Origin: Saccharolobus solfataricus
GTDB lineage: Archaea; Thermoproteota; Thermoprotei_A; Sulfolobales; Sulfolobaceae
DNA: 32,000 nt
Assembly (NCBI RefSeq): GCF_900079115.1
Contig: NZ_LT549890.1
Span: 2,880,001-2,912,000, forward strand
Direction of reading: 5' to 3'
The position numbers and the translations under genes were made by a program. A model generated the notes under the pieces. It saw only the letters and a list, made by a program, of their open reading frames with translations, was not told the DNA's origin and did not search any database. Below, piece after piece: positions 543 through 17,777 of this stretch (its first letter is position 1; each line of letters starts with the position of its first letter).

Positions 543-905
543 TTAAAAGACTAATGTGGCTTTAGCCTCGGAACTCCTTAATGCGAATTCAGAAACACCG
601 CTTACCTTAACCTTATCCAACAGCCTTTCATGATCAACGTTCTTAACTTTCATTCCAAATTCACATGCTGTAAGTTCTATGTCATCTCCTCCTAATTCTA
701 TCAGATTTTCATAGTAATATGATAATGGCTTTACGTTAGGTAGCTGTATTTTCTCTATTTCCTTTGTTACTCCCCTTAATCCATCCATAGTGAAGAACAT
801 ATATACTTTATTTCCAGAAGAGGCGTAACCTATTGCAGTTATATAGGCCATATAGAGTTTCTCGGCTTCTCCAGATATTACCATTATTGCATATAAATCG
901 CTCAT
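543..905 (-). CDS. DsrE/DsrF-like (DrsE_2-type) sulfur-relay family protein
   Basis: 120 aa. The FFTMDGL and TACEFGM motifs resemble the FFTFWGL and AC.mS motifs of DsrE-like 'peroxiredoxin family' proteins. Its start overlaps the upstream ORF stop by 4 nt, which suggests operon membership. Confidence 0.65.
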   Translation of the reverse strand: MSDLYAIMVISGEAEKLYMAYITAIGYASSGNKVYMFFTMDGLRGVTKEIEKIQLPNVKPLSYYYENLIELGGDDIELTACEFGMKVKNVDHERLLDKVKVSGVSEFALRSSEAKATLVF

Positions 906-1189
906 TCCTTATTCGCCTCCTCCAATTCTCTAACCGTCTTAACTAGATTATACCAGAAGAATATGAGTCCCAAATAAACTACTATGTAACAAATGTATCT
1001 AGTTACCTCTATATATCCTTGCAATTGGGATGGGAACACATAAGCTGAAAATACACCGTTTTCTAACGCTACATTATTATTAGGGACTATATATTGCACA
1101 GAGAATTCATACCAACCTATTGCAAATAAACTTACTATTAAGGGTGACAATAGTCTCCTAATAATTGGCAAGAAAATCATCATAACCAC
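902..1189 (-). CDS. small hydrophobic membrane protein of unknown function
   Basis: 95-aa ORF with about 3 hydrophobic segments. It overlaps both neighbours on the same strand (10 nt with the yeeE-like stop, 4 nt with the dsrE-like start), consistent with translational coupling. Confidence 0.5.
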   Translation of the reverse strand: MVMMIFLPIIRRLLSPLIVSLFAIGWYEFSVQYIVPNNNVALENGVFSAYVFPSQLQGYIEVTRYICYIVVYLGLIFFWYNLVKTVRELEEANKE

Positions 1190-2409
1190 CTTTCTTGGAC
1201 TTTAACCGCTAAATAAACTCCTAACAACATTCCGAATAGGAATATGATACCGTCATAACCTAATTGAGCGAAATTGGTCCACATCAATCCTACATTGCAT
1301 CCGAGAGCCATCCTAACACCTATACCAACTAACATTCCTCCTCCAAACCCTATCAGCAATCTACTCTTATTCCTAGGTATTCGTATTTTGAAGTCGCCAC
1401 TTAAATACGATGCCGAGAAAGCTCCAATACACAACATTATTACCATTAGCGTACTGGGGTCTATGATTGGTAGCGAATCGTTAAACCATGGTGTGTTTAG
1501 AAATAACTTGACATTTCCTAACATTAACAAGTACTCGAAGAACCTACCGCCGTCAGATGAGGTTATCACAAGGTAATTGAAGGTATATCCAGCACCAACT
1601 ATGAAAACTAAAAGCAAATCTAATGCTAATATTATCGTAGTTAAATTAGTTCCATATGGTTTTCTTAAAAGTATCAAATCTTTAATTTCCTTGGTTAACG
1701 ATACCTTTTCTTCTCCAGATGTGCTTAGGTTTTGATTATAATACGCTCTCGCAGTAGGTAAATTAATGCTTAGACCAGATGAGATTGCCCATTTTCTCTT
1801 AGTGTACTGTTGTAAGTATATTCCAATGAATATTAGCGGTAGACTAACTACTAGCGTGGTTATATAGATTGACATATTTGAAATGGAGTGAAATATAAGA
1901 TAAGGTAAGTATTCTACATATCCTCCGTTAATAGTAGATAAAATTCCATTCGTCATTGTGTATAGCTGGAAAGGCCATATGCCTATGGCAAATACGTAAG
2001 TTCCTATCATCATTCCGAATAGCTCTATCCAATTTTGAACGTAGCCACTAGCAGCCCTATACAACATTGACAAATTACAACCTCCGGCTAATGCTGCACC
2101 AAAGCCGAATATTATAGAGCCAACAAGAATGTACCATCCTGCAAAATAGTTATAATAATACTGATCAACAGCTGGAATAAACCCAAATGCAACCAGCAAT
2201 CCACATCCCAAAGCAGATAATCCGAATAGTATTAAAAGGGCTCCAAATCTCTCATAGCTTTTAGCTGTAAATATTGATGTCATGGCGTTTACAAAACAAT
2301 AATTGCCTCTTTGGGCTGCCCAACCTAAAATAAATCCGGAAAGAGCAAACAATCCATAAACTAATGCCCAATTCTCTTGAAGTACTGGCTGTAGTACCAT
2401 ACTTGGCAT
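1180..2409 (-). CDS. YeeE/YedE-family sulfur-compound (thiosulfate-type) transporter
   Basis: 409-aa polytopic membrane protein. Three Cys motifs lie in hydrophobic helices (GNYCFVNA, GGCNLSM, LGCNVGL), as in YeeE/YedE. It sits immediately downstream of tusA. Confidence 0.85.
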   Translation of the reverse strand: MPSMVLQPVLQENWALVYGLFALSGFILGWAAQRGNYCFVNAMTSIFTAKSYERFGALLILFGLSALGCGLLVAFGFIPAVDQYYYNYFAGWYILVGSIIFGFGAALAGGCNLSMLYRAASGYVQNWIELFGMMIGTYVFAIGIWPFQLYTMTNGILSTINGGYVEYLPYLIFHSISNMSIYITTLVVSLPLIFIGIYLQQYTKRKWAISSGLSINLPTARAYYNQNLSTSGEEKVSLTKEIKDLILLRKPYGTNLTTIILALDLLLVFIVGAGYTFNYLVITSSDGGRFFEYLLMLGNVKLFLNTPWFNDSLPIIDPSTLMVIMLCIGAFSASYLSGDFKIRIPRNKSRLLIGFGGGMLVGIGVRMALGCNVGLMWTNFAQLGYDGIIFLFGMLLGVYLAVKVQERWL

Positions 2410-2412
2410 TGA

Positions 2413-2661
2413 TTATTTCACCTTCAGGATTCTCACCTTATAAATTCCGTTATCTTTTATCACTACAAACGGGTATCCTAAGGATTTGCATAAAGAAGGT
2501 AAAGTAACATGTACTGCGGGCTCGTGATCTGTTAATACTTCTAGCATTTGTCCAACTTTCATTTTCTTCAATTTTTTGCTTGCGCTCATTTCTGGAACAG
2601 GACATTCTTCTCCTCTAACATCAAGAACCTCGTCTGGCTGTCTTAAAGTTAGATCTTCCAC
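2413..2661 (-). CDS. tusA: TusA/SirA-family sulfur carrier protein (GTG start)
   Basis: 82 aa with the CPxP active-site motif in [10 protein letters not shown]. It pairs with the YeeE-like gene 3 nt downstream. Confidence 0.85.
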
Positions 2662-2672
2662 TTTGACTCCCT

Positions 2673-2790
2673 CAAAATATTACGTATTTTTAGGTAATTA
2701 TAAAAGTTGTGATATTATAAACCCTTATTAAAGTTGGTATAATTAAATTGTAATTATCATATCTACAATATCTAATATTTTTGCATAAAA
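2673..2790. repeat. left copy of a perfect 118-bp inverted repeat (partner 6070-6187)
   Basis: Block-by-block manual reverse-complement alignment gave 118/118 identity. Positions 2743-2790 on the minus strand are a relic copy of the last 15 codons plus stop of the DsrE-like gene at 5770-6117. Confidence 0.95.
2695..2705 (-). promoter_or_regulatory. putative TATA box (TTTTATAATTA) of the tusA operon, inside the left repeat copy
   Basis: The A/T box lies 33 nt upstream of the tusA GTG. That distance predicts a transcript start close to the outer end of the repeat, leaving an 11-nt unique leader (agggagtcaaa). Confidence 0.45.
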
Positions 2791-2959
2791 ATTATAAAAC
2801 ACCTTATCTAGCAAAGCTAACTAACCCAAAAGATTTTTACTTCACATTTTTATGATTGTTTAATGATAAGAATAGACTTTTTATTCTTAAAATTAAATTC
2901 AGTTATCCATTAAATGGCTAAAGATAAGTTTTTAAATAGAATTAGCATCATTTTAAACA

Positions 2960-3970
2960 ATGATAGAGGAAACTACACTGATTTACGCTGAAGATTTCAA
3001 GCCGTTATTAGACTTGGAAAACTCGTATAAATTATATAAATTATCAAATATAAAAAAGCTAGATTTTGGTTATATTTGTTACCTTACCATGTTCAAACTA
3101 AAAGTAGAATGTATTTGCAAACCAAGAAAAGATGGCTTGGACATAATAGAAAAGAATGGAAGGTTCATAATAGATATAACATTCCAGAAGGAAAGTGAAG
3201 AGAGAATAAATGTAAAAATAAGTTACAGAGGAATTCTCGAAAAACTCCTAAGTAGCATAGCAAACTCCATAAGGAAAAATTTGGAAGAGTATTCGAGGTA
3301 CTTGTTGAGGAAACAAAAAGTTGAAAATAATTTTAGAATTTCTACTCTTAAGCCAGATAAGGTAGTAGATCTTAGAGGGGAAGAATGCCCAGTTCCAGAA
3401 ATAACGTTAAAGAGAGAATTGATGAAGGCTAATAGGGGAGAAATAGTAGAAGTTTTGACTGATAATCCTGCCGCAGTAGCTCACACTATTCCAGAAATAA
3501 TTAAGTTATTTAACTGTAGATATGAGGTCTTGAAATACGAAGACTACGTATCTTTTAGGATTTTAGTTTTAAGTAATATAATTAACACTGATGAATACGT
3601 TAAGGCTATTAAGGAATTTAATGAGATTAGAATTAAAGAACTAATTAGGGATAAGAAATTTATGTCATTTTTATATACATATTTTATGAAACTCCATAAA
3701 ACTGAAAAAGTTAATGATTTTAGGAATTATATATTTAACTGTGAAAAAGATATTTGTCTAGTCTCCTCTGCACCTCTAGGTAGAGGTTGGCTATTTACTG
3801 GACTGGTTAAGAATAACAAAATAGTATGTGCTAGGATTGACACTAAAGACGGAACCTTATTAGATTACGAAGCCTTAGAATATTTAAAGAAGTTATCCAG
3901 TGGTGTTTCACCAATTTTACTCAAAATGATACAATTTCTATGGAAGAGAAAAATATCAGAGCGGAGTTAG
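2960..3970 (+). CDS. three-domain protein with a central TusA domain; 3' end replaced by an IS insertion (native reading frame ends at 3896, remainder is IS-derived)
   Basis: 336-aa ORF. Residues ~133-205 ([40 protein letters not shown]...) form a TusA domain sharing RGEECPVPE with the stand-alone TusA. It is flanked by ~130-aa N- and C-terminal domains of unknown family. The IS left end at 3897 lies inside the ORF. Confidence 0.7.
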   Translation: MIEETTLIYAEDFKPLLDLENSYKLYKLSNIKKLDFGYICYLTMFKLKVECICKPRKDGLDIIEKNGRFIIDITFQKESEERINVKISYRGILEKLLSSIANSIRKNLEEYSRYLLRKQKVENNFRISTLKPDKVVDLRGEECPVPEITLKRELMKANRGEIVEVLTDNPAAVAHTIPEIIKLFNCRYEVLKYEDYVSFRILVLSNIINTDEYVKAIKEFNEIRIKELIRDKKFMSFLYTYFMKLHKTEKVNDFRNYIFNCEKDICLVSSAPLGRGWLFTGLVKNNKIVCARIDTKDGTLLDYEALEYLKKLSSGVSPILLKMIQFLWKRKISERS

Positions 3971-5337
3971 AAAAATCGGCTTATTTCAACACAAGAAGCA
4001 AAAAATTTTCATATTTGTTGAAGAAACTAACAGAAAACGAGTTTATATATAAAGAGTAATACCATTTGTCTAGTATTATCAATAGAGGAAAGTAGGTGGA
4101 AGGACGAGATGAACAAGAAAAGGTTAAAGCGAGGGACTCCATAACTCCGTTATGCAAACCATACAAGTATCCAAAACGGAGCTGAAGTCCCTCGCTATAA
4201 ATTTAGCAACAAACAATATTAACGTTATCTCTCAAGATCTAGACCCGGAAATAGTGAAAGCAGCACCATCCTTGCTAACCGGAAACAGAGGAAAATACTA
4301 CTTGAAGGTAGTAAGACGAGGCGAGAAAGTAATTAGTAAAGGTCAGAGAACCTTCAAGTTCTACCCAATCTACAGAGAAGTAAAGGGAGAGATCAACGTA
4401 GTCGCTGTAGATGAGACCGGATTAACCGTGGGAGAAAAGGAACAAGAAAAAGCAGAGGGCTTTCTACTCTACAACTGGAAGAGAAAAGGAGTAAAGATGA
4501 GATCCTTGGACCTCGTATATCCCTTAAGGTTACCCCTCCTAGTGGAGGTAGCAGATTTGAGAAGCGACAGTCCATCACAGTTCCTACTCAGGAGCGTGAG
4601 GGAAGTAAGCCAATACATGGAAATAGATTACGTTGTAGCTGACGCCGGATTCTTGAACCTAGGGGTCATCAAGGAAATGCCCGTGAAGACCATTGTGAGA
4701 GGAAAGTCGAACTTGAAGGGATTCAAGGAACTATCTAACGTTCCATTAGTTGAGAAGAGATACGAGGTTAAGGACAAGGTTTACGTTGCGTATAGGGTCT
4801 TGAAATTTGAAGGGCTTTATTATTACGATGTGGTTTACGTTAAGGGAAAGCCGAGGCACTTTATGTTCGTGACGAACTTCGAGGGAGATCCCTATGAACT
4901 GGCTGAACTCTATAGGTTGAGGTGGCAGGTTGAGGAGGGTTTTAAGGTTAGGAAGGCAAGGATAAGGTATGTTAGGAAGTTGAGTAACAAGATCTTCTTG
5001 TTCCTCTATTACACGGTTCTGGATTCTGCGTGGAATCTAGTGAATCATCTTCTCTTTAACTTCAAGTCCACGTGTAAGAAGGTTTTGTCCTTCGATTCAT
5101 TCGTCAAGCTTCTCTAACTTTCTCGGTGTTCAGAGGAGACTATGCACGTCGTTTTCACCACGTGAGAAAAATTCAGAATTCTCCTCTTATTATTAGAATT
5201 GTACGCTATATTTTTTGCAAATTACCTTAACATGTTATGTTTCATAATAATTTTATTGTTTTTCTCTATATCAATCTCTTTTTGAAAGGACTAATATTAT
5301 ATCTTTCAAATGAAATAATTTGGTGAAACACCACTGG
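3897..5337 (+). mobile_element. IS4-family insertion sequence, 1441 bp (size and family fit the Sulfolobus ISC1439 type; that name is from memory only)
   Basis: Perfect 18-bp terminal inverted repeats: ccagtggtgtttcaccaa at 3897-3914 and its reverse complement at 5320-5337. Flanking 7-bp direct repeat AAGTTAT at 3890-3896 and 5338-5344. One internal DDE transposase ORF. Confidence 0.9.
4152..5117 (+). CDS. DDE transposase (IS4 family)
   Basis: 321 aa. The C-terminal YRLRWQVEEGFKVRK matches the IS4-family Y-(2)-R-(3)-E-(6)-K signature. The ORF lies between the IS terminal repeats. Confidence 0.85.
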   Translation: MQTIQVSKTELKSLAINLATNNINVISQDLDPEIVKAAPSLLTGNRGKYYLKVVRRGEKVISKGQRTFKFYPIYREVKGEINVVAVDETGLTVGEKEQEKAEGFLLYNWKRKGVKMRSLDLVYPLRLPLLVEVADLRSDSPSQFLLRSVREVSQYMEIDYVVADAGFLNLGVIKEMPVKTIVRGKSNLKGFKELSNVPLVEKRYEVKDKVYVAYRVLKFEGLYYYDVVYVKGKPRHFMFVTNFEGDPYELAELYRLRWQVEEGFKVRKARIRYVRKLSNKIFLFLYYTVLDSAWNLVNHLLFNFKSTCKKVLSFDSFVKLL

Positions 5338-5417
5338 AAGTTATCTGGAGAAACAAACGTTATGTATTTATCGTTAGATTAACTATTTTAAAAAAATTTA
5401 TTTAGACTAAGTGCGTA

Positions 5418-5789
5418 TTGCCAATTATGGAGCTTAAGGATGAATGTGGCTGTATAATCAATAGAAGATACGCTTCAGATTTTCTAATGAAAAGGTTATT
5501 TAGTTATAGGAAGAAGGTAAATGCGGAAAAATTAGGCTATTTTAGAATAGATAATTCTAGATGGTTCGCACTCTATAGGGCTAGAGATGGAAAAATATAT
5601 TATGAAAGTTCTGAATGTCCACTACTTATAATAACCTTAGAAGCACTCTGTGAGGGATATATGGAAAATAATGGAAAAATAGATAGATATACCTTCATGG
5701 GAAAATTAAGTAAAATTAAGGGATTTACAATCAATCAGATAGTGAATGAAGTTATTGACAAATTTATAAATGGTGTTAATGGTGGTTAA
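5418..5789 (+). CDS. hypothetical Cys-containing protein (possible true start at ATG 5427)
   Basis: 123-aa ORF with a CGC motif near the N-terminus and two further Cys residues. Its stop overlaps the start region of the downstream DsrE-like gene. No family recognised. Confidence 0.5.
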   Translation: MPIMELKDECGCIINRRYASDFLMKRLFSYRKKVNAEKLGYFRIDNSRWFALYRARDGKIYYESSECPLLIITLEALCEGYMENNGKIDRYTFMGKLSKIKGFTINQIVNEVIDKFINGVNGG

Positions 5790-6117
5790 GAGAATTGCTT
5801 ACATAGTCGAATCCAATTTGGGTTCTTACATTTTAGGACAGATGATAATACCACAGTTAGAGGAAAACAGACACAACGCGGAAGTTATTGGAATGTTCTT
5901 TATACACGATAATGTATATATTTTAATGAAAGATAACCCTTTAGCCGAAAGATTAAGCAAGCTTAGTAGAGAAAGGGGCATATATTTGCAAGCTTGTGAT
6001 CAATGTGTATACATGAGAAACTTAGCTGATAAATTAATAGAGGAAGCAAAGATCGGTTGTTTCCCAGACTTTTATGCAAAAATATTAGATATTGTAGATA
6101 TGATAATTACAATTTAA
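5770..6117 (+). CDS. DsrE/TusD-family sulfur-relay protein (start may be the ATG at 5779)
   Basis: 115 aa. RIAYIVES, MFFIHDNVY and LQACDQC match DsrE-family hallmarks (vFFyqDGV and the conserved active-site Cys region). Confidence 0.7.
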   Translation: MVLMVVKRIAYIVESNLGSYILGQMIIPQLEENRHNAEVIGMFFIHDNVYILMKDNPLAERLSKLSRERGIYLQACDQCVYMRNLADKLIEEAKIGCFPDFYAKILDIVDMIITI

Positions 6118-6187
6118 TTATACCAACTTTAATAAGGGTTTATAATATCACAACTTTTATAATTACCTAAAAATACGTAATATTTTG
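6070..6187. repeat. right copy of the perfect 118-bp inverted repeat (partner 2673-2790)
   Basis: Covers the last 48 nt of the DsrE-like gene plus the whole intergenic promoter region, ending 10 nt before the GTG at 6198. Confidence 0.95.
6155..6165 (+). promoter_or_regulatory. putative TATA box (TTTTATAATTA) of the 6198-8858 operon, inside the right repeat copy
   Basis: Same sequence and spacing as the left copy. A 10-nt unique leader (gggaaatcga) precedes the GTG at 6198. Confidence 0.45.
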
Positions 6188-6197
6188 GGGAAATCGA

Positions 6198-7415
6198 GTG
6201 AATAAAAAGCAGTTAATCAAAGCGTTATCCAGTTATCAATTATGGTTAATAGTAGGACTTATAGTAATTATATTGATAGGAGTAGGAGCTGCATACATTA
6301 TGTTAAAGCAATCTCCATCATCGTCAACACCTAGTTCAACCCAAACCACCAGTAGTCCAGTTTCTACTACATTACCTCAATACAGCTTCCTAGTATTCAC
6401 ACAGAAAGGAATTGCAGAAATAATAAACCCATCATCCACTACTCCTTTCCAAGGATATATCCATTCTATTAACATCTCTACGAACTTACCCCAACAAGTA
6501 TATTGGTGGGTTGAATATCCACTCGAAAGTGTGGCACAATCTCGATACTACTTCATACCAGTAAATAATGGCACAGTCTACGTAATCGATCCTAATAGTT
6601 TAAAGATCATAAAGGAATTCAATTTTGGAAATAGTATAGGGTTTATAGGAGTTTCGTACTCGCCAAACCAACAATTAGTTGCAGTTGCAGATGGACCAAG
6701 CGGTATCTTAGCCCTAATTAACGTTTCATCGCTTAACGTAATATGGGAACAACACTTCGTATCTTCAGTTAACGGCAGAACGTATTATCCCTGCGACGTT
6801 AGATGGAGCCCAGATGGAAGCTACTTAATAGTTCCAATGAGATTTAACAATAGTGTTGACCTTATAGCGTTAAACGGTAGTGTAATTAAGGTTTTACCTG
6901 CAGTTGCTGGTTCGCAACCCTATATGGTAAGCCCTAATATACAAGGGACAATGGTAGCGGTAGAGTACGTTGGGAATAACTCAGTTGGATTTTACTCTCT
7001 ACCATCATTGAAATTGTTAGGCATATTACAAATGCCAAATGGTACAATACCTCAGAGGGGCGTATTCACACCAAATGGAGAGTACTATCTAGAGGCACCT
7101 TCAAACGCAAATCAAGTGTTTGTAATATCTACATCAACTTTTCAGATAGCCAAAACTATAGACTTGCCAACATTTAGCGTTAAAGGCTTGGCGGATATAG
7201 AACTTATGCCTGGAGGACAATATGCATACGTTGTGATTCACGGTAATATACAATCAGGCGGTATAATAGCTCTAATATCCCTAAGTAGTTTAACAGTGAG
7301 TAGCTATGTACCCTTGTCTACTGCTCCAGCAGTGATAATTCCAGTTCAAAACCAAGTGGCAACTTACCTAGTCGATAACGTCTTACTGCCTCCAGTTAGC
7401 GGACTTCACTGTTAA
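6198..7415 (+). CDS. membrane-anchored or secreted beta-propeller protein (YVTN-type repeats) with a Ser/Thr-rich stalk
   Basis: 405 aa. N-terminal TM segment, then [20 protein letters not shown]. Repeated motifs such as [16 protein letters not shown] and [11 protein letters not shown] are typical of YVTN/WD-like propeller blades. Confidence 0.7.
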
Positions 7416-7425
7416 GGGGATAAGG

Positions 7426-8337
7426 ATGAAAGTCATACACCCATATTTCTATACTTTTTTGTTTTTTAATTTTACTATATTTCTCCCAATTTTAATAAAT
7501 GGGGTTAGGATAGTTAGTTTGTGGTATTCTCCCTTATCCGATACTGGACAACAAACGTTTATATTTCCCTTTTTAATATTCACTGTTATATATCTCGCTT
7601 GCTCCAGTATAGTTGGGTACTTCCTTTACAAGTACAAGGAGAATAAATTCATATTAGTGAAAGGAGACTTCAACGTACTAAATATTATAAAGAGTCTTCT
7701 CAGAGATAAAACGTTTAGAAAAATGCTAACTTTTTATTCAATTGTCTATTTTTTATCTTTCTTAATAGTTGGAGGAGTTATCCTTATACCAAACATTAAC
7801 ATTAGCCCATATTTTATAAAGCTAACAATAATAACATACAACGCATATGGAATTCAAACCTACTTCAATTTCTTCGTGCTTAATATACCAATGATCGTCT
7901 TTGGTTTATTAAACACGTTAATATTATCATTTGCGTTTATGCTAAGCTACTATACCATATCACTAATGTATGTGTCATACAATTTAATGAAATGGAAAGT
8001 ACCTAGAACCTTTAGGATAGCTACAACAAACATGGTAGGAGGATTCTTGACAGCCTCAGTCCCATCAATTGGAACTATTGCGGGAATTTGTTGTTTAACC
8101 CCTACTGCAATAAATTCATTATTGTATCTCGCTTCTTCCTCATTCCCATTAATAAGTAAAAACCTAGTGTGGAAGTACACAATCTATATGGGAATGCCTC
8201 TACTCTCTACTATCTCCCAATTAATATTACTATCCTCCCCCGTATTTGCAGGAATAGCAATTCTCTCTTTATCATTATATTCTCTCATGCAAATTAGCAA
8301 GAAATTAAGGGAGGGATTGCTATGGCAAAGACAATGA
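7426..8337 (+). CDS. polytopic membrane protein with an intramembrane CC motif, unknown family
   Basis: 303 aa with about 8 hydrophobic segments, including GTIAGICCLTPTA. It starts 10 nt after the upstream stop, preceded by ggggataagg. It overlaps the next gene by 16 nt. Confidence 0.65.
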   Translation: MKVIHPYFYTFLFFNFTIFLPILINGVRIVSLWYSPLSDTGQQTFIFPFLIFTVIYLACSSIVGYFLYKYKENKFILVKGDFNVLNIIKSLLRDKTFRKMLTFYSIVYFLSFLIVGGVILIPNINISPYFIKLTIITYNAYGIQTYFNFFVLNIPMIVFGLLNTLILSFAFMLSYYTISLMYVSYNLMKWKVPRTFRIATTNMVGGFLTASVPSIGTIAGICCLTPTAINSLLYLASSSFPLISKNLVWKYTIYMGMPLLSTISQLILLSSPVFAGIAILSLSLYSLMQISKKLREGLLWQRQ

Positions 8338-8858
8338 TCTCCAATAATTTTACACTAATTTTAAGAATATCAATAGCCTCCATATGGCTTTATGCCGGTA
8401 TTTTACAGAAACTTCTCAATCCAGCATTTCTGAATCCATCTTCCGAACAATATGTAGGTTTCACTATACAATACTTATCCCAAGGGTCTATTATAAGGCA
8501 GTTTTTATACATAGTCGCAATGCCACATCCGGTTCTAGTGGGAACATTAGTCATGATAGGAGAGATTAGCTTTGGGATTCTAACTCTTATAGGATTAATG
8601 AGCAGACTATGTAGCGTAGTAGCATTTTATACCAACTTAATTTACTTCTTATCTGCTAGCTGGACTGGAGCTGAGGAATATGGATTAAATCTTTTAATGA
8701 TGATAATAAATGCGTACATAATAGCTTATGGTCCTGGTATTTACTCAATAGACTCTCTGGTTTCTCGAAAAGTTAACGTTGTAAATAACAAGATAATATG
8801 GATAATAGTAGGTAGTGCAATATATGTTGCGATCATTGTGTATCTAATACTTGTCTAG
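8322..8858 (+). CDS. DoxX/MauE-like small membrane protein
   Basis: 178 aa with 4 hydrophobic segments. The N-terminal LILRISIASIWLYAGILQKL resembles the DoxX-family signature. The family call is tentative. Confidence 0.55.
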   Translation: MAKTMISNNFTLILRISIASIWLYAGILQKLLNPAFLNPSSEQYVGFTIQYLSQGSIIRQFLYIVAMPHPVLVGTLVMIGEISFGILTLIGLMSRLCSVVAFYTNLIYFLSASWTGAEEYGLNLLMMIINAYIIAYGPGIYSIDSLVSRKVNVVNNKIIWIIVGSAIYVAIIVYLILV

Positions 8859-9865
8859 GATAGTCTCATTTTTACATACCCAACAATTAGGAGAATAGTT
8901 GCTAAGAGAGAATCTAAGTATCTATCATATATTATTAAATTTATGATATAAAATCCTAGTATTACAGAATAATATATCATGTTCTTACTTCCGAATGGTG
9001 CAAGACCGTAAACACCTAAAGAGAAAGAGATTGACGCTATTATATAGGGTAAAATCAGTACGATGTTATTACCTATCAAAATAAATTCAAACAAATAAAA
9101 TGGCAGACTGGATAACATAATTATCAAAGGTATCTCAGCTAGTAATTTTCCTATGTATACCTTACTTATTCCTACTAACCTTATAATTTGCCTTAATTCG
9201 CCTCTAGGAAAAGAGGATAATAAATAGTAACTCATCAAATCGATAAAGGAAAAAACAAATATCAAAAGGATAATTAGAGGTATCTTTAGCGTGTTTGAAA
9301 AATTATTGTAGGTGAAATTGACATTTAGAGGAAGATTAACGTTATCTGAATCGATCTCAGAAATTGTATAGTTTAGATTTTCTTGTTCAGGATCCACTGC
9401 GATGAAAGTCTTACCCTTAACACTTATGATTGAAAGATTTTGACTGGAATAATATTTTAAGAAAAGACTTGAAAAGGCGAAAGTAGTTGAAGAATTTGGT
9501 ATATATACTGTTAAATTTACGCTCTTTTGAAGCGAATTTTTTATTATTATTAAGTTAATCCTAGTACTATTGTGAACATATGCTACTGGAAGATACAAGT
9601 AAAATGACCCATTATTCGTCTTAACACTCTCTGTGAAATTGTAGTATGACAACTTTATTTCTGAACTCACACCGTTTCCTTGAAAGTCAAAGACGTAACC
9701 TGATACTTTTATCCCATAAGAAGAACCTTGAATGATACCTACAACGCTTATTGACATGGAAAGAATTTGCCCTACTATTAGCGATAAACTCAAGGCTATG
9801 AGAATTAGGAAGACAAACGCAACTGATCTTTTAAATTCCTGCATAAAAATATAGGAAAGCTTCAT
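8855..9865 (-). CDS. ABC-2-type permease-like membrane protein with a large extracytoplasmic loop
   Basis: 336 aa. TM1, then a ~170-aa loop rich in N-x-S/T, then 5 C-terminal TM segments. It overlaps the upstream ATPase gene by 35 nt. Confidence 0.6.
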   Translation of the reverse strand: MKLSYIFMQEFKRSVAFVFLILIALSLSLIVGQILSMSISVVGIIQGSSYGIKVSGYVFDFQGNGVSSEIKLSYYNFTESVKTNNGSFYLYLPVAYVHNSTRINLIIIKNSLQKSVNLTVYIPNSSTTFAFSSLFLKYYSSQNLSIISVKGKTFIAVDPEQENLNYTISEIDSDNVNLPLNVNFTYNNFSNTLKIPLIILLIFVFSFIDLMSYYLLSSFPRGELRQIIRLVGISKVYIGKLLAEIPLIIMLSSLPFYLFEFILIGNNIVLILPYIIASISFSLGVYGLAPFGSKNMIYYSVILGFYIINLIIYDRYLDSLLATILLIVGYVKMRLS

Positions 9866-10544
9866 CGGGTGTCACTCTAATAACCTCATACTTAATTCCA
9901 CGTTTATCTAAATCAATCTCGACACTATTATCGTTTTCCCTTTCCCATATCTCATCGTTCTCGAATTTTATAACTTTGTACAATAATCCACTTTTAGAGC
10001 CATCAAAAACAATCTTACCCTTAGAAATAATTATAACCCTATTGATTAAATCCCATATATCCTTAAGATTATGATGAGCAATTATTACACTTCCTTTAAA
10101 GTTCCTTATTAAATCTCTCGTTAATGAAGAAGTTTGGGACATGTCATCAACTATGAGATATTTCGGGGAAAAAGGTAATGAAAGAGCTAAGGATAACCTC
10201 TTTTTCTCGTCTAATGCCAGATCCCTAATCTTCTTATCCCTATCTAAACCAACAAGATCTATATAGTGATACTCCTTCGTAACATAACTCATTACGTCCT
10301 TTACCCTTATAGTGGATATGAATTTGGGTACTTGAGGTATATAAGCGATCTTCCTCTTGTCATCTAAATACACTTTACCTCTACTCGGTTTAGTCTCACC
10401 AGCTAGTATCTCAACTAATACAGTCTTCCCTGAGTTATGAACACCAACAACTCCTATCTTTTCGTTCTCATAAATATCTAGATTAACGTTAACCACTGCA
10501 AAGCTTCCGTGAAAAACTTTACTTACATTTATTGCTCTTATCAC
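9831..10544 (-). CDS. ABC-type ATPase with degenerate signature and Walker B motifs
   Basis: 237 aa. Walker A GVHNSGKT, Q-loop IPQ. The signature position reads LALDEKKRL instead of LSGGQ. Walker B reads LIVDDMS (D in place of the catalytic E). H-loop IIAHHN. Confidence 0.75.
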   Translation of the reverse strand: MIRAINVSKVFHGSFAVVNVNLDIYENEKIGVVGVHNSGKTVLVEILAGETKPSRGKVYLDDKRKIAYIPQVPKFISTIRVKDVMSYVTKEYHYIDLVGLDRDKKIRDLALDEKKRLSLALSLPFSPKYLIVDDMSQTSSLTRDLIRNFKGSVIIAHHNLKDIWDLINRVIIISKGKIVFDGSKSGLLYKVIKFENDEIWERENDNSVEIDLDKRGIKYEVIRVTPDEAFLYFYAGI

Positions 10545-12375: not shown

Positions 12376-13038
12376 ATGATAAAAAGTTATACCGTAATAC
12401 TCTCGCACGACGATTGGAGTCGTTATACTGAGAAATTTGATGAAGAGGAATTATATGTAAAAGTAGTTAGAAGAATTCCATCCTTAGATGGACTCACTGA
12501 AAACGTTATGGGTGTAATTTACGCCAAGGACAAGGACTCTTATAAGCAAATAGTTAAAATGCTTAGTAGAAATGCGACAACAATTGACTTTAAAATAATA
12601 GATTTGTATAAAAACAAATCTGGAATCAGAGCAATATACGCATCTGTAGAGAGTCTTAGAGGGAGAATAGCTGAAAGGTTACTACGAGATTGTAGGATTT
12701 TCAGTATGAACGAAACTATATATGAAGGAATGGAAAGATGGAGTATAATTGCTGACTCTGAAAACTTCATCAAGATCATACCAGAGGTGAAAGAGTTAAC
12801 TTACGAGTTTAAAATTATTGAGGAATCTTCAAATCCATTCCTTTCAGTAAAGGAAGAGCTAACACCTAAGGAATTAGCCATTCTGAAACTGGCCTTTGAT
12901 AGGGGATACTTTGAAACACCTAAAAGGATAGGATTAGAGGATTTGGCAAATGAGTTAGGGATTTCTAAACCAGCCATAATGCAGGTTTTAAGAAAAGCTA
13001 TAGCGAAGTTAGCTGAAAAAACTATAAGAGATATTTAA
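12376..13038 (+). CDS. HTH_10 (Bat-type) DNA-binding regulator
   Basis: 220 aa. The C-terminal LTPKELAILKLAFDRGYFETPKRIGLEDLANELGISKPAIMQVLRKAIAKL matches the HTH_10 pattern (L-T-x-x-q-x-e-x-L-x-x-A-x-x-x-G-Y-F-e-x-P-R). Confidence 0.75.
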   Translation: MIKSYTVILSHDDWSRYTEKFDEEELYVKVVRRIPSLDGLTENVMGVIYAKDKDSYKQIVKMLSRNATTIDFKIIDLYKNKSGIRAIYASVESLRGRIAERLLRDCRIFSMNETIYEGMERWSIIADSENFIKIIPEVKELTYEFKIIEESSNPFLSVKEELTPKELAILKLAFDRGYFETPKRIGLEDLANELGISKPAIMQVLRKAIAKLAEKTIRDI

Positions 13039-17096: not shown

Positions 17097-17777
17097 ATGC
17101 ATGTTTATAAAGTCAAGCTTGACCTTAAACACGATTCGTGCTGGACATATAAAACGTCTGATTTCAAAGTAAATGCGGAGGTAAAATATCTCTTTCCTCT
17201 AATAACTAAGAATTCAATTTTTGAAATAGCCGAGATTTACTCTGATGATAAAAATGAACTTTCAGATTTTATATCAGCAATTAATAGAAGGTATGGTAAT
17301 AATATAAAAGTTGCTAACATAGATAGGCAGAGGTCTAGTAAAGTGGCTTTATTATACTATTTTAAAAATTTCGACAACTCTGTTACAAGAGTTATGATTG
17401 AGAACAATGCAGTAATAACAAACTTATCCATAAGTAATGGAATAGAGGAGTGGTACGCATATTTCTTTGGAGAGGAAGAGGAGATTCTCTCAAATATATC
17501 GCATGGTCTAAAAAGGATAGACGTTAAGGTAGAGAACATAGATCTGGAAAAAACTAAATTAAACGAAATAAAAAACGATCTAGTCATAATTAACTCCCTA
17601 ACTCCTACTGAGAGGGAAATTCTTACGACTGCAATCAAGTTAGGGTTCTTTGAGTATCCTAAAAGAGTCAGATTAGAGGAGTTAGCTGAGATGTTCGGAG
17701 TTACTAAGGTAACTTTAGATAGGCATATAAGAAATGGGTTAAGGAAGATTTTAAGTCAATTATTTATAAACTCCTAG
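17097..17777 (+). CDS. HTH_10 (Bat-type) DNA-binding regulator, paralog of 12376-13038
   Basis: 226 aa. C-terminal LTPTEREILTTAIKLGFFEYPKRVRLEELAEMFGVTKVTLDRHIRNGLRKIL. The architecture matches the 12376 gene, including an N-terminal H-D-x-x-W motif (HDSCW versus HDDW). Confidence 0.75.
   Translation: MHVYKVKLDLKHDSCWTYKTSDFKVNAEVKYLFPLITKNSIFEIAEIYSDDKNELSDFISAINRRYGNNIKVANIDRQRSSKVALLYYFKNFDNSVTRVMIENNAVITNLSISNGIEEWYAYFFGEEEEILSNISHGLKRIDVKVENIDLEKTKLNEIKNDLVIINSLTPTEREILTTAIKLGFFEYPKRVRLEELAEMFGVTKVTLDRHIRNGLRKILSQLFINS

Follow-up and report, generated by a model that had tools for sequence, protein, structure and literature searches.

How can two outward-facing operons carry identical DNA before their first genes, and what becomes of the genes enclosed between them? 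This question is raised by a sulfur locus of Saccharolobus solfataricus, contained in a 32-kb stretch of contig NZ_LT549890.1 (positions 2,880,001 to 2,912,000; hereafter the window, with its own numbering). The operons tusA-yeeE-orf-dsrE and propeller-membrane-DoxX are each preceded by one arm of an inverted repeat, and a small module of three genes, the last encoding a protein related to SaoD and DsrE (the SaoD-like gene), lies between the arms. Based on the comparison of related loci, we consider it highly probable that this arrangement is the product of recurrent inversion and gene conversion between duplicated, promoter-bearing arms.

The inverted repeat and the loci compared

Self-alignment of the window confirmed the observation from which this work started: positions 2673-2790 are the exact reverse complement of 6070-6187 (118 of 118 nucleotides, nt). 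A match of this length in 32 kb of DNA with 35% G+C cannot be produced by chance, and there is no third copy in the window. On the outer side five of the next eight nt also match, which extends the repeat to 126 nt at 98% identity, while the inner edge is abrupt and the adjoining 40 nt are unrelated. Likewise confirmed were the gaps of 11 nt between the exact match and the GTG start codon of tusA (2661, minus strand) and of 10 nt before that of the propeller gene (6198), as was the presence of a gene tail in the inner 48 nt. These 48 nt (6070-6117) are the final 15 codons and the stop codon of the SaoD-like open reading frame (ORF) at 5770-6117; in the right arm they are followed by 78 nt comprising the promoter and leader region of the propeller operon. 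The left arm, read on the minus strand, consists of an orphan 48-nt tail of the SaoD-like gene leading into the promoter region and leader of the tusA operon. The principal elements are:

2665..2790 (exact core 2673-2790), minus strand: left arm, the derived copy, identified by self-alignment and by comparison with other loci and relatives
6070..6195, plus strand: right arm, the original, identified by self-alignment and by 75-80% identity to the propeller-upstream DNA of two repeat-less relatives (L019, L020)
2791..6069, no strand assigned: invertible module of 3279 bp (1832 bp without its insertion sequence), reverse-complemented at identical length in 10 of 28 related loci

The 28 loci with both arms are those encoding related propeller proteins plus one contig from a metagenome scan. 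A scan of the genome collection yielded three distant relatives, and the close ones were obtained via the propeller protein; in the metagenome scan, a 32-nt core of the repeat matched five stretches, each either oriented as in the window or broken at the repeat. The window is of the P1 type: its propeller protein is 100% identical to that of S. solfataricus P1 (SAI86738) and 92% identical to a cluster from S. islandicus, S. solfataricus P2 and S. shibatae. We assigned P1 and CP160827.2 to the P1 type and counted the other 26 loci as outside it. All of these 26, which include S. solfataricus P2 and 98/2, S. islandicus and an S. shibatae-like genome, have the repeat at 126 nt. It is perfect in 25 of them, reaching to 3 nt before the tusA start and to 2 nt before the propeller start. 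The module, described as 3.3 kb in the sequence-only reading, has indeed 3279 bp here but only 1.83 kb in all lineages examined other than the P1 type; the rest is added by an insertion sequence.

We also noted that the P1 locus differs from that of P2, its nearest neighbour, at 849 of 8297 nt (approximately 10%; 543-10500 compared). The P2 locus (L024) itself differs from North American S. islandicus-type contigs at approximately 21 nt. The two distances together suggest an exchange of the whole sulfur locus between species.

Orientation of the module and identity of its arms

The module occurs in two orientations among the 28 loci. In 18 of them the SaoD-like gene precedes the propeller gene, as in the window; in the other 10 the module is flipped and the SaoD-like gene precedes tusA. 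The orientations were taken from complete genomes and from k141 or JGI metagenome contigs. The two states are distributed as follows:

Window-like, 18 loci: P1, CP160827, L.S.2.15, Y.G.57.14, CP194013, the Kamchatka strain AHJS01 and 12 metagenome contigs
Flipped, solfataricus type: S. solfataricus P2 (AE006641) and the 98/2 type (CP033235)
Flipped, S. islandicus: Y.N.15.51 (CP001404), REY15A (CP002425) and CP046616
Flipped, others: GCA_016415645, GCA_053498275, the Kamchatka strains AHJP01 and AHJQ01, and a shibatae-like metagenome-assembled genome

The flipped loci keep the same outer flanks and have their inner flanks swapped; the module is equally long and all ORFs are intact. Therefore, the breakpoints lie inside the arms. 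It had been proposed from the window alone that the module could invert without damage to any ORF and that an alignment of orthologous loci would be the place to look for both orientations; both expectations were borne out. We found no earlier description of this inversion in the literature.

Orientation changes between very close relatives. Over 8.3 kb, only 4 substitutions separate Y.N.15.51 from a window-type contig, and 5 separate GCA_053498275 from another such contig. Strains from one Kamchatka spring differ in orientation, those of opposite orientation being 9 substitutions apart. For Y.N.15.51, GCA_053498275 and the Kamchatka strains, the nearest locus is one of the opposite and not of their own orientation. 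Fitch parsimony on a neighbour-joining tree requires at least five orientation changes (five to six in 100 bootstraps). Taken together, the comparison of assembled loci shows that the module flips repeatedly in nature. As a separate observation, the metagenome contig k141_3093 (L029; ENA ERZ27249298) has as its position 1 the first base at the inner boundary of the repeat; such a break is what a sample of mixed orientation would give, but this is only a hint.

The arms, on their part, evolve in concert: 5 of the 118 core positions distinguish P1 from the other strains, and at each of these both arms of a genome share the same state. Five lineage-specific substitutions present in both arms, next to flanks that have diverged by approximately 10%, indicate concerted evolution. 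Arms evolving independently since the split would have accumulated several differences from each other. In the 118-nt core of P1 there are none, and divergence between the arms is limited to the outermost 8 nt; this speaks for gene conversion. Among the 26 loci outside the P1 type, the sole difference that has not been homogenised is a substitution in one arm of L015 (CP194013.1, left arm, position 8013), which accounts for the single mismatch there. Thus, the comparison between lineages shows that gene conversion maintains the identity of the arms in diverging lineages. The sequence-only reading had named gene conversion as one possible reason for the perfect identity, and it is vindicated by the five substitutions between P1 and the other strains.

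Each of these points could be read differently, and three such readings bear on the loci themselves. The differences in orientation might be artefacts, with only one orientation being real and a 126-bp repeat confusing the assemblers. Indeed, several of the metagenome contigs end within the repeat or at it, and Logan contigs, built from k=31 graphs that are identical for both states, break at the arm or cross it arbitrarily. On the other hand, the flipped state is found in genomes finished independently by different groups and at different times (P2, the 98/2 type, Y.N.15.51, REY15A and CP046616), and the window state is found in P1, CP160827, L.S.2.15, Y.G.57.14 and CP194013. Moreover, the contigs named k141_, which we take to come from MEGAHIT with k=141, were assembled with a k-mer longer than the 126-nt repeat, so that it was resolved. 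We therefore regard an artefact as very improbable. More credit, although still little, can be given to a single ancient inversion, whose two old haplotypes were kept in the populations and moved between strains by recombination, without repeated flips. S. islandicus is known to recombine, and the trees rest on few substitutions. However, an old polymorphism should carry linked differences near the breakpoints, and the 25 close loci have no variable site, within the module or adjacent to it, that tracks orientation, which argues against one old inversion with linked haplotypes. In addition, pairs of opposite orientation are nearly identical over 8.3 kb, including the interior of the module. 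Finally, the identity of the arms might be due to very strong purifying selection on each of them as a promoter, without gene conversion. In line with this, the repeat is better kept between P1 and S. islandicus (approximately 95% identity) than the flanking genes (88-94%, or about 90%) and the adjoining spacer (79%), and no variation in it is seen among S. islandicus, P2 and the shibatae-like locus. But then the five substitutions between P1 and the others, each of which is in both arms, would have to be five parallel changes, which is implausible, and the 48-nt gene tail is identical even on the side away from the gene, where it has no function. We find this last explanation hardly credible.

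Origin of the repeat and the predicted promoter within it

The repeat-less relatives indicate which state and which arm came first. In all seven the SaoD-like gene precedes the propeller gene, and the orientation of the window is therefore the older one. When the repeat was compared with the propeller-upstream DNA of the two closest repeat-less relatives, identities of 80% and 75% were obtained (z scores 15 and 12), whereas the tusA-upstream DNA of the same two relatives had no significant similarity to it (z < 3). Since the repeat is homologous to the propeller-upstream DNA of the relatives alone, the arm on the propeller side is the original and that on the tusA side is the copy. This agrees with the proposal made from the window that the right-hand unit, a gene end plus a promoter, was the source. 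By contrast, the proposal of a very recent event did not hold for the duplication, which predates the split of P1 from the group of S. islandicus, P2 and the shibatae-like genome.

The gene order into which the copy was placed was also considered. In Stygiolobus sp. (L001) and in two Metallosphaera species (L002, L003) all ten genes are colinear on one strand, and we had taken this order for the ancestral one. The idea was withdrawn because the order is divergent in a Sulfurisphaera tokodaii-type locus and in Acidianus brierleyi; it is also divergent in two Sulfolobaceae contigs, the propeller protein of which is 74% identical to that of P1. The copy appears to have been made in the Saccharolobus lineage, with the divergent gene order already present. 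An older tusA promoter relic in the spacer was looked for as well; the alignment looked promising but scored no better than shuffled sequence. It was further seen that in relatives the interval from tusA to the TusA-fusion gene holds one or two additional small genes with a TusA domain (L019, 3267-3512; L051, 3218-4193; L052, 3964-4191), and that Saccharolobus is without them.

The following element makes the duplicated DNA a likely promoter:

6134..6166, plus strand: two-part A/T-rich promoter motif, conserved before both operons in seven genomes with equal spacing and equal distance to the start codon

Its boxes are AAGGGTTTATAA at 6134-6145 and CTTTTATAATTA at 6155-6166, and in the left arm they are mirrored at 2715-2726 (AAGGGTTTATAA) and 2694-2705 (CTTTTATAATTA). 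All genomes examined have, before both operons, AAGGGTTTAWAA, a gap of approximately 10 nt and TTTTAWAA, similarly far from the start codon; just before the start of both there are GGTGA- or GAGG-like motifs. The two-part motif is present across genera of the Sulfolobaceae even where the long repeat is missing (L001-L003, L019, L020 and L052). A motif common to both operons across genera points to an ancient common regulator. Both operons would thus have shared their promoter architecture before the repeat existed, and complete identity would have been reached in Saccharolobus.

In Sulfolobus the TATA box usually lies approximately 26 nt before the transcript start. With this spacing, the predicted transcript start falls inside the arm for either of the two candidate TATA boxes. 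The proposal that the two operons share their promoter is supported at the level of comparative conservation. That they then diverge into unique leaders, as was also proposed, applies to the final 8 nt in P1; in the other strains the identity continues to 2-3 nt before both starts. A bacterial-type promoter and terminator scan was discarded as not applicable to archaea.

As to possible regulators, two HTH_10-type regulator genes are located a few kb downstream of the locus (12376-13038 and 17097-17777), and in S. islandicus a further HTH_10-type gene is found just upstream, on the side of the tusA operon. Their products are candidate regulators of the shared promoter.

Probable mechanism of the inversion

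From these comparisons the following course of events can be proposed. In an ancestor shared by S. solfataricus, S. islandicus and S. shibatae, a piece of 126 bp comprising the 3' end of the SaoD-like gene together with the promoter and leader of the propeller operon would have been copied in inverted orientation directly before tusA, which by then was already divergent and upstream of the TusA-fusion, Cys-protein and SaoD-like genes. From then on, the tusA-yeeE-orf-dsrE and the propeller-membrane-DoxX operons would have been preceded by identical regulatory DNA. The arms recombine with each other: crossovers flip the three-gene module, and accompanying conversion homogenises the arms. Most likely it is the general machinery of homologous recombination that acts on them. 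We found no gene for a serine or tyrosine recombinase in the 32-kb window by Pfam scans of the ORFs, the sole transposase being that of the insertion sequence of the P1 type, and none is listed among the precomputed domains of 20-kb S. islandicus loci. In the collections searched, the repeat had no match in plasmids, phages or viral contigs. With no recombinase nearby and no match to mobile DNA, general homologous recombination is the best explanation, and Sulfolobales are known to recombine with short homologies. Since the gene tail and the promoter are inside the arms, neither orientation breaks an ORF or separates an operon from its promoter, which probably explains the persistence of both states as a near-neutral polymorphism. 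What the flip does change is the operon found downstream of the SaoD-like gene, and the operon promoter to which the promoter of the module is back-to-back.

Two familiar kinds of element were considered for the repeat and rejected. It does not fit an inverton with short repeats and an internal ON/OFF promoter, because the arms are 126 bp long and hold the operon promoters, and both operons keep their promoter in both states. Nor does it fit the ends of a mobile element such as a composite transposon or a miniature inverted-repeat transposable element (MITE): there are two copies per locus with no plasmid, phage or viral match, the S. islandicus module is without a transposase, and the arm is homologous to single-copy promoter DNA of the relatives.

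The flip could be more than a by-product of recombination. One possibility is a dedicated phase-variation switch, operated at high frequency by a site-specific recombinase which is encoded elsewhere and has its sites in the arms. Both orientations are common, as such a switch would require, and contig L029 starts at the first base of the repeat, as it would in a mixed sample. But the window and the 20-kb S. islandicus loci are without a serine or tyrosine recombinase, and arms of 126 bp are far longer than typical invertase sites. They are composed of a gene tail and a promoter and are homologous to single-copy DNA in relatives, and their concerted evolution over the whole length fits exchange driven by homology. 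We hold a dedicated switch to be quite improbable. A somewhat better, although still unlikely, case can be made for a flip that is used and not merely tolerated. A run of five or more T is the usual termination signal in Sulfolobus, and no run of at least five T is present between the stop codon of the SaoD-like gene and the downstream promoter. Read-through from the module of TusA-fusion, Cys-protein and SaoD-like genes into the downstream operon is therefore possible, and the orientation might decide whether the tusA-yeeE or the propeller-DoxX operon receives a read-through boost, and which promoter has the back-to-back position. If true, this would be a recombinase-independent, heritable expression switch acting on a thiosulfate-uptake-type operon (tusA-yeeE) and giving rise to subpopulations in sulfur metabolism among hot-spring archaea.

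Several points weigh against recurrent inversion with gene conversion between the arms, which we prefer, or limit how far it can be taken. Exchange of DNA among S. islandicus strains could inflate the number of flips counted by carrying an orientation from one background to another, and some of the orientations could reflect choices of the assembler. Flipping was read from assembled loci. The k=31 Logan contigs are uninformative on orientation, since both states give the same assembly graph, and those crossing the repeat were set aside as evidence. The spacer, when compared with relatives, yielded no significant signal on how the copy arose. At the promoter, there are two candidate A/T boxes, either of which may be the TATA box, and the transcript start is predicted from spacing.

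Genes of the locus and likeness to known systems

The operons and the module have the following composition, according to ORF calls, domain searches and comparison with other loci:

543..2661, minus strand: tusA operon, outward from the left arm (ORF calls and domain searches)
2413-2661, minus strand: tusA (domain match TusA)
1180-2409, minus strand: gene of a YeeE-type (Sulf_transp) transporter of sulfur compounds (domain match)
902-1189, minus strand: small membrane ORF
543-905, minus strand: dsrE (domain match DsrE)
2791..2959, plus strand: spacer upstream of the TusA-fusion gene, moving with the module (comparison with other loci)
2960..3970, plus strand: TusA-domain fusion gene with its 3' end displaced by the insertion sequence, 324 amino acids in the intact form (domain match and in-silico removal of the insertion sequence)
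3897..5337, plus strand: insertion sequence of 1441 bp with 18-bp terminal inverted repeats (sequence ends and locus comparison)
4152-5117, plus strand: DDE transposase gene of the insertion sequence (domain match)
5427..5789, plus strand: gene of a Cys-rich protein of 120 amino acids (ORF)
5770..6117, plus strand: gene of a SaoD/DsrE-related CxxC protein (domain searches)
6198..8858, plus strand: propeller operon, outward from the right arm (ORF calls and domain searches)
6198-7415, plus strand: YncE-like beta-propeller gene (domain match)
7426-8337, plus strand: gene of a polytopic membrane protein (ORF)
8322-8858, plus strand: DoxX/DoxD-like gene (domain match)

In order, the module thus comprises the spacer, which presumably holds the own promoter of the TusA-fusion gene, then this gene itself, that of the Cys-rich protein and the 5' portion of the SaoD-like gene. 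The SaoD-like ORF is complete in either orientation, with its final 48 nt inside the repeat. Among the loci examined, the insertion sequence is confined to the P1-type genomes (P1 and CP160827.2). It is flanked by a 7-bp target duplication, AAGTTAT (3890-3896 and 5338-5344), and has taken the place of the final 11 codons of the TusA-fusion gene; its removal in silico restores the ORF of 324 amino acids.

The Cys-rich protein had no family match in domain searches. The SaoD family, part of the bacterial SAO system, was described in a preprint. Membership of the SaoD-like protein in it (NCBIfam NF040732) was rejected, its score of 133 bits being below the cut-off of 169. By this score, the product is classified as a related DsrE-like CxxC protein outside the bacterial SAO system. 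An exact look-up of the SaoD-like ORF of 115 amino acids gave no match, and public annotation uses a later start.

The locus is a further, well-documented case of recurrent inversion mediated by inverted repeats with concerted arms, and its mechanism is conventional. Distinctive are the nature of the arms, which are a duplicated promoter and gene tail, and the fact that the polymorphism separates widely used laboratory strains. It is important for several reasons. The locus shows recombination at short homologies and gene conversion in model Sulfolobales (P1, P2, 98/2 and REY15A), and it could be used as a natural reporter of the rates of inversion and conversion at high temperature. Further, it illustrates that duplication of a promoter, and not of a gene, can place two operons under identical control and then create a structural polymorphism. 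Last but not least, caution is needed when reference genomes are compared here, since orientation varies between them and assemblies with short k-mers cannot resolve it.

Known systems share some of these features. Like the bacterial invertons (Hin, Gin, the Fim switch and the promoter inversions of Bacteroides), the module is a small segment bounded by inverted repeats that occurs naturally in two orientations. The inverton repeats, however, are short recombinase sites with an adjacent invertase, and the promoter is inside the segment and is turned ON or OFF, whereas here the arms hold the operon promoters, there is no invertase in the vicinity and neither state silences a gene. Plastid genomes and the Halobacterium plasmid pNRC100 exist as flip-flop isomers via large inverted repeats. 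There too, two isomers result from recombination between identical inverted repeats, and the copies show concerted evolution, but these repeats extend over many kb with whole genes and the isomers coexist in every cell population, while in our case they are known from separate loci. The tufA and tufB genes of Salmonella and E. coli are inverted duplicates that undergo gene conversion and can mediate inversion. As in the present locus, inverted duplicates on one chromosome are kept identical by recombination-dependent conversion, with occasional inversion between them. The tuf repeats are whole genes of approximately 1.2 kb and are very far apart; here the copies are regulatory DNA with 48 nt of coding sequence, 1.8-3.3 kb apart. 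Inversion polymorphisms that arise by non-allelic homologous recombination between inverted duplications, for example the recurrent human inversions flanked by inverted repeats (PMC3961182), are similar in that the inverted copies are near-identical, the breakpoints are inside them, both orientations segregate and recur on different haplotypes and no dedicated enzyme is needed. Our case differs in that it concerns an archaeon, with arms of 126 bp around a 1.8-kb segment, and in that the arms are a promoter and a gene tail, so that nothing is disrupted by the inversion.

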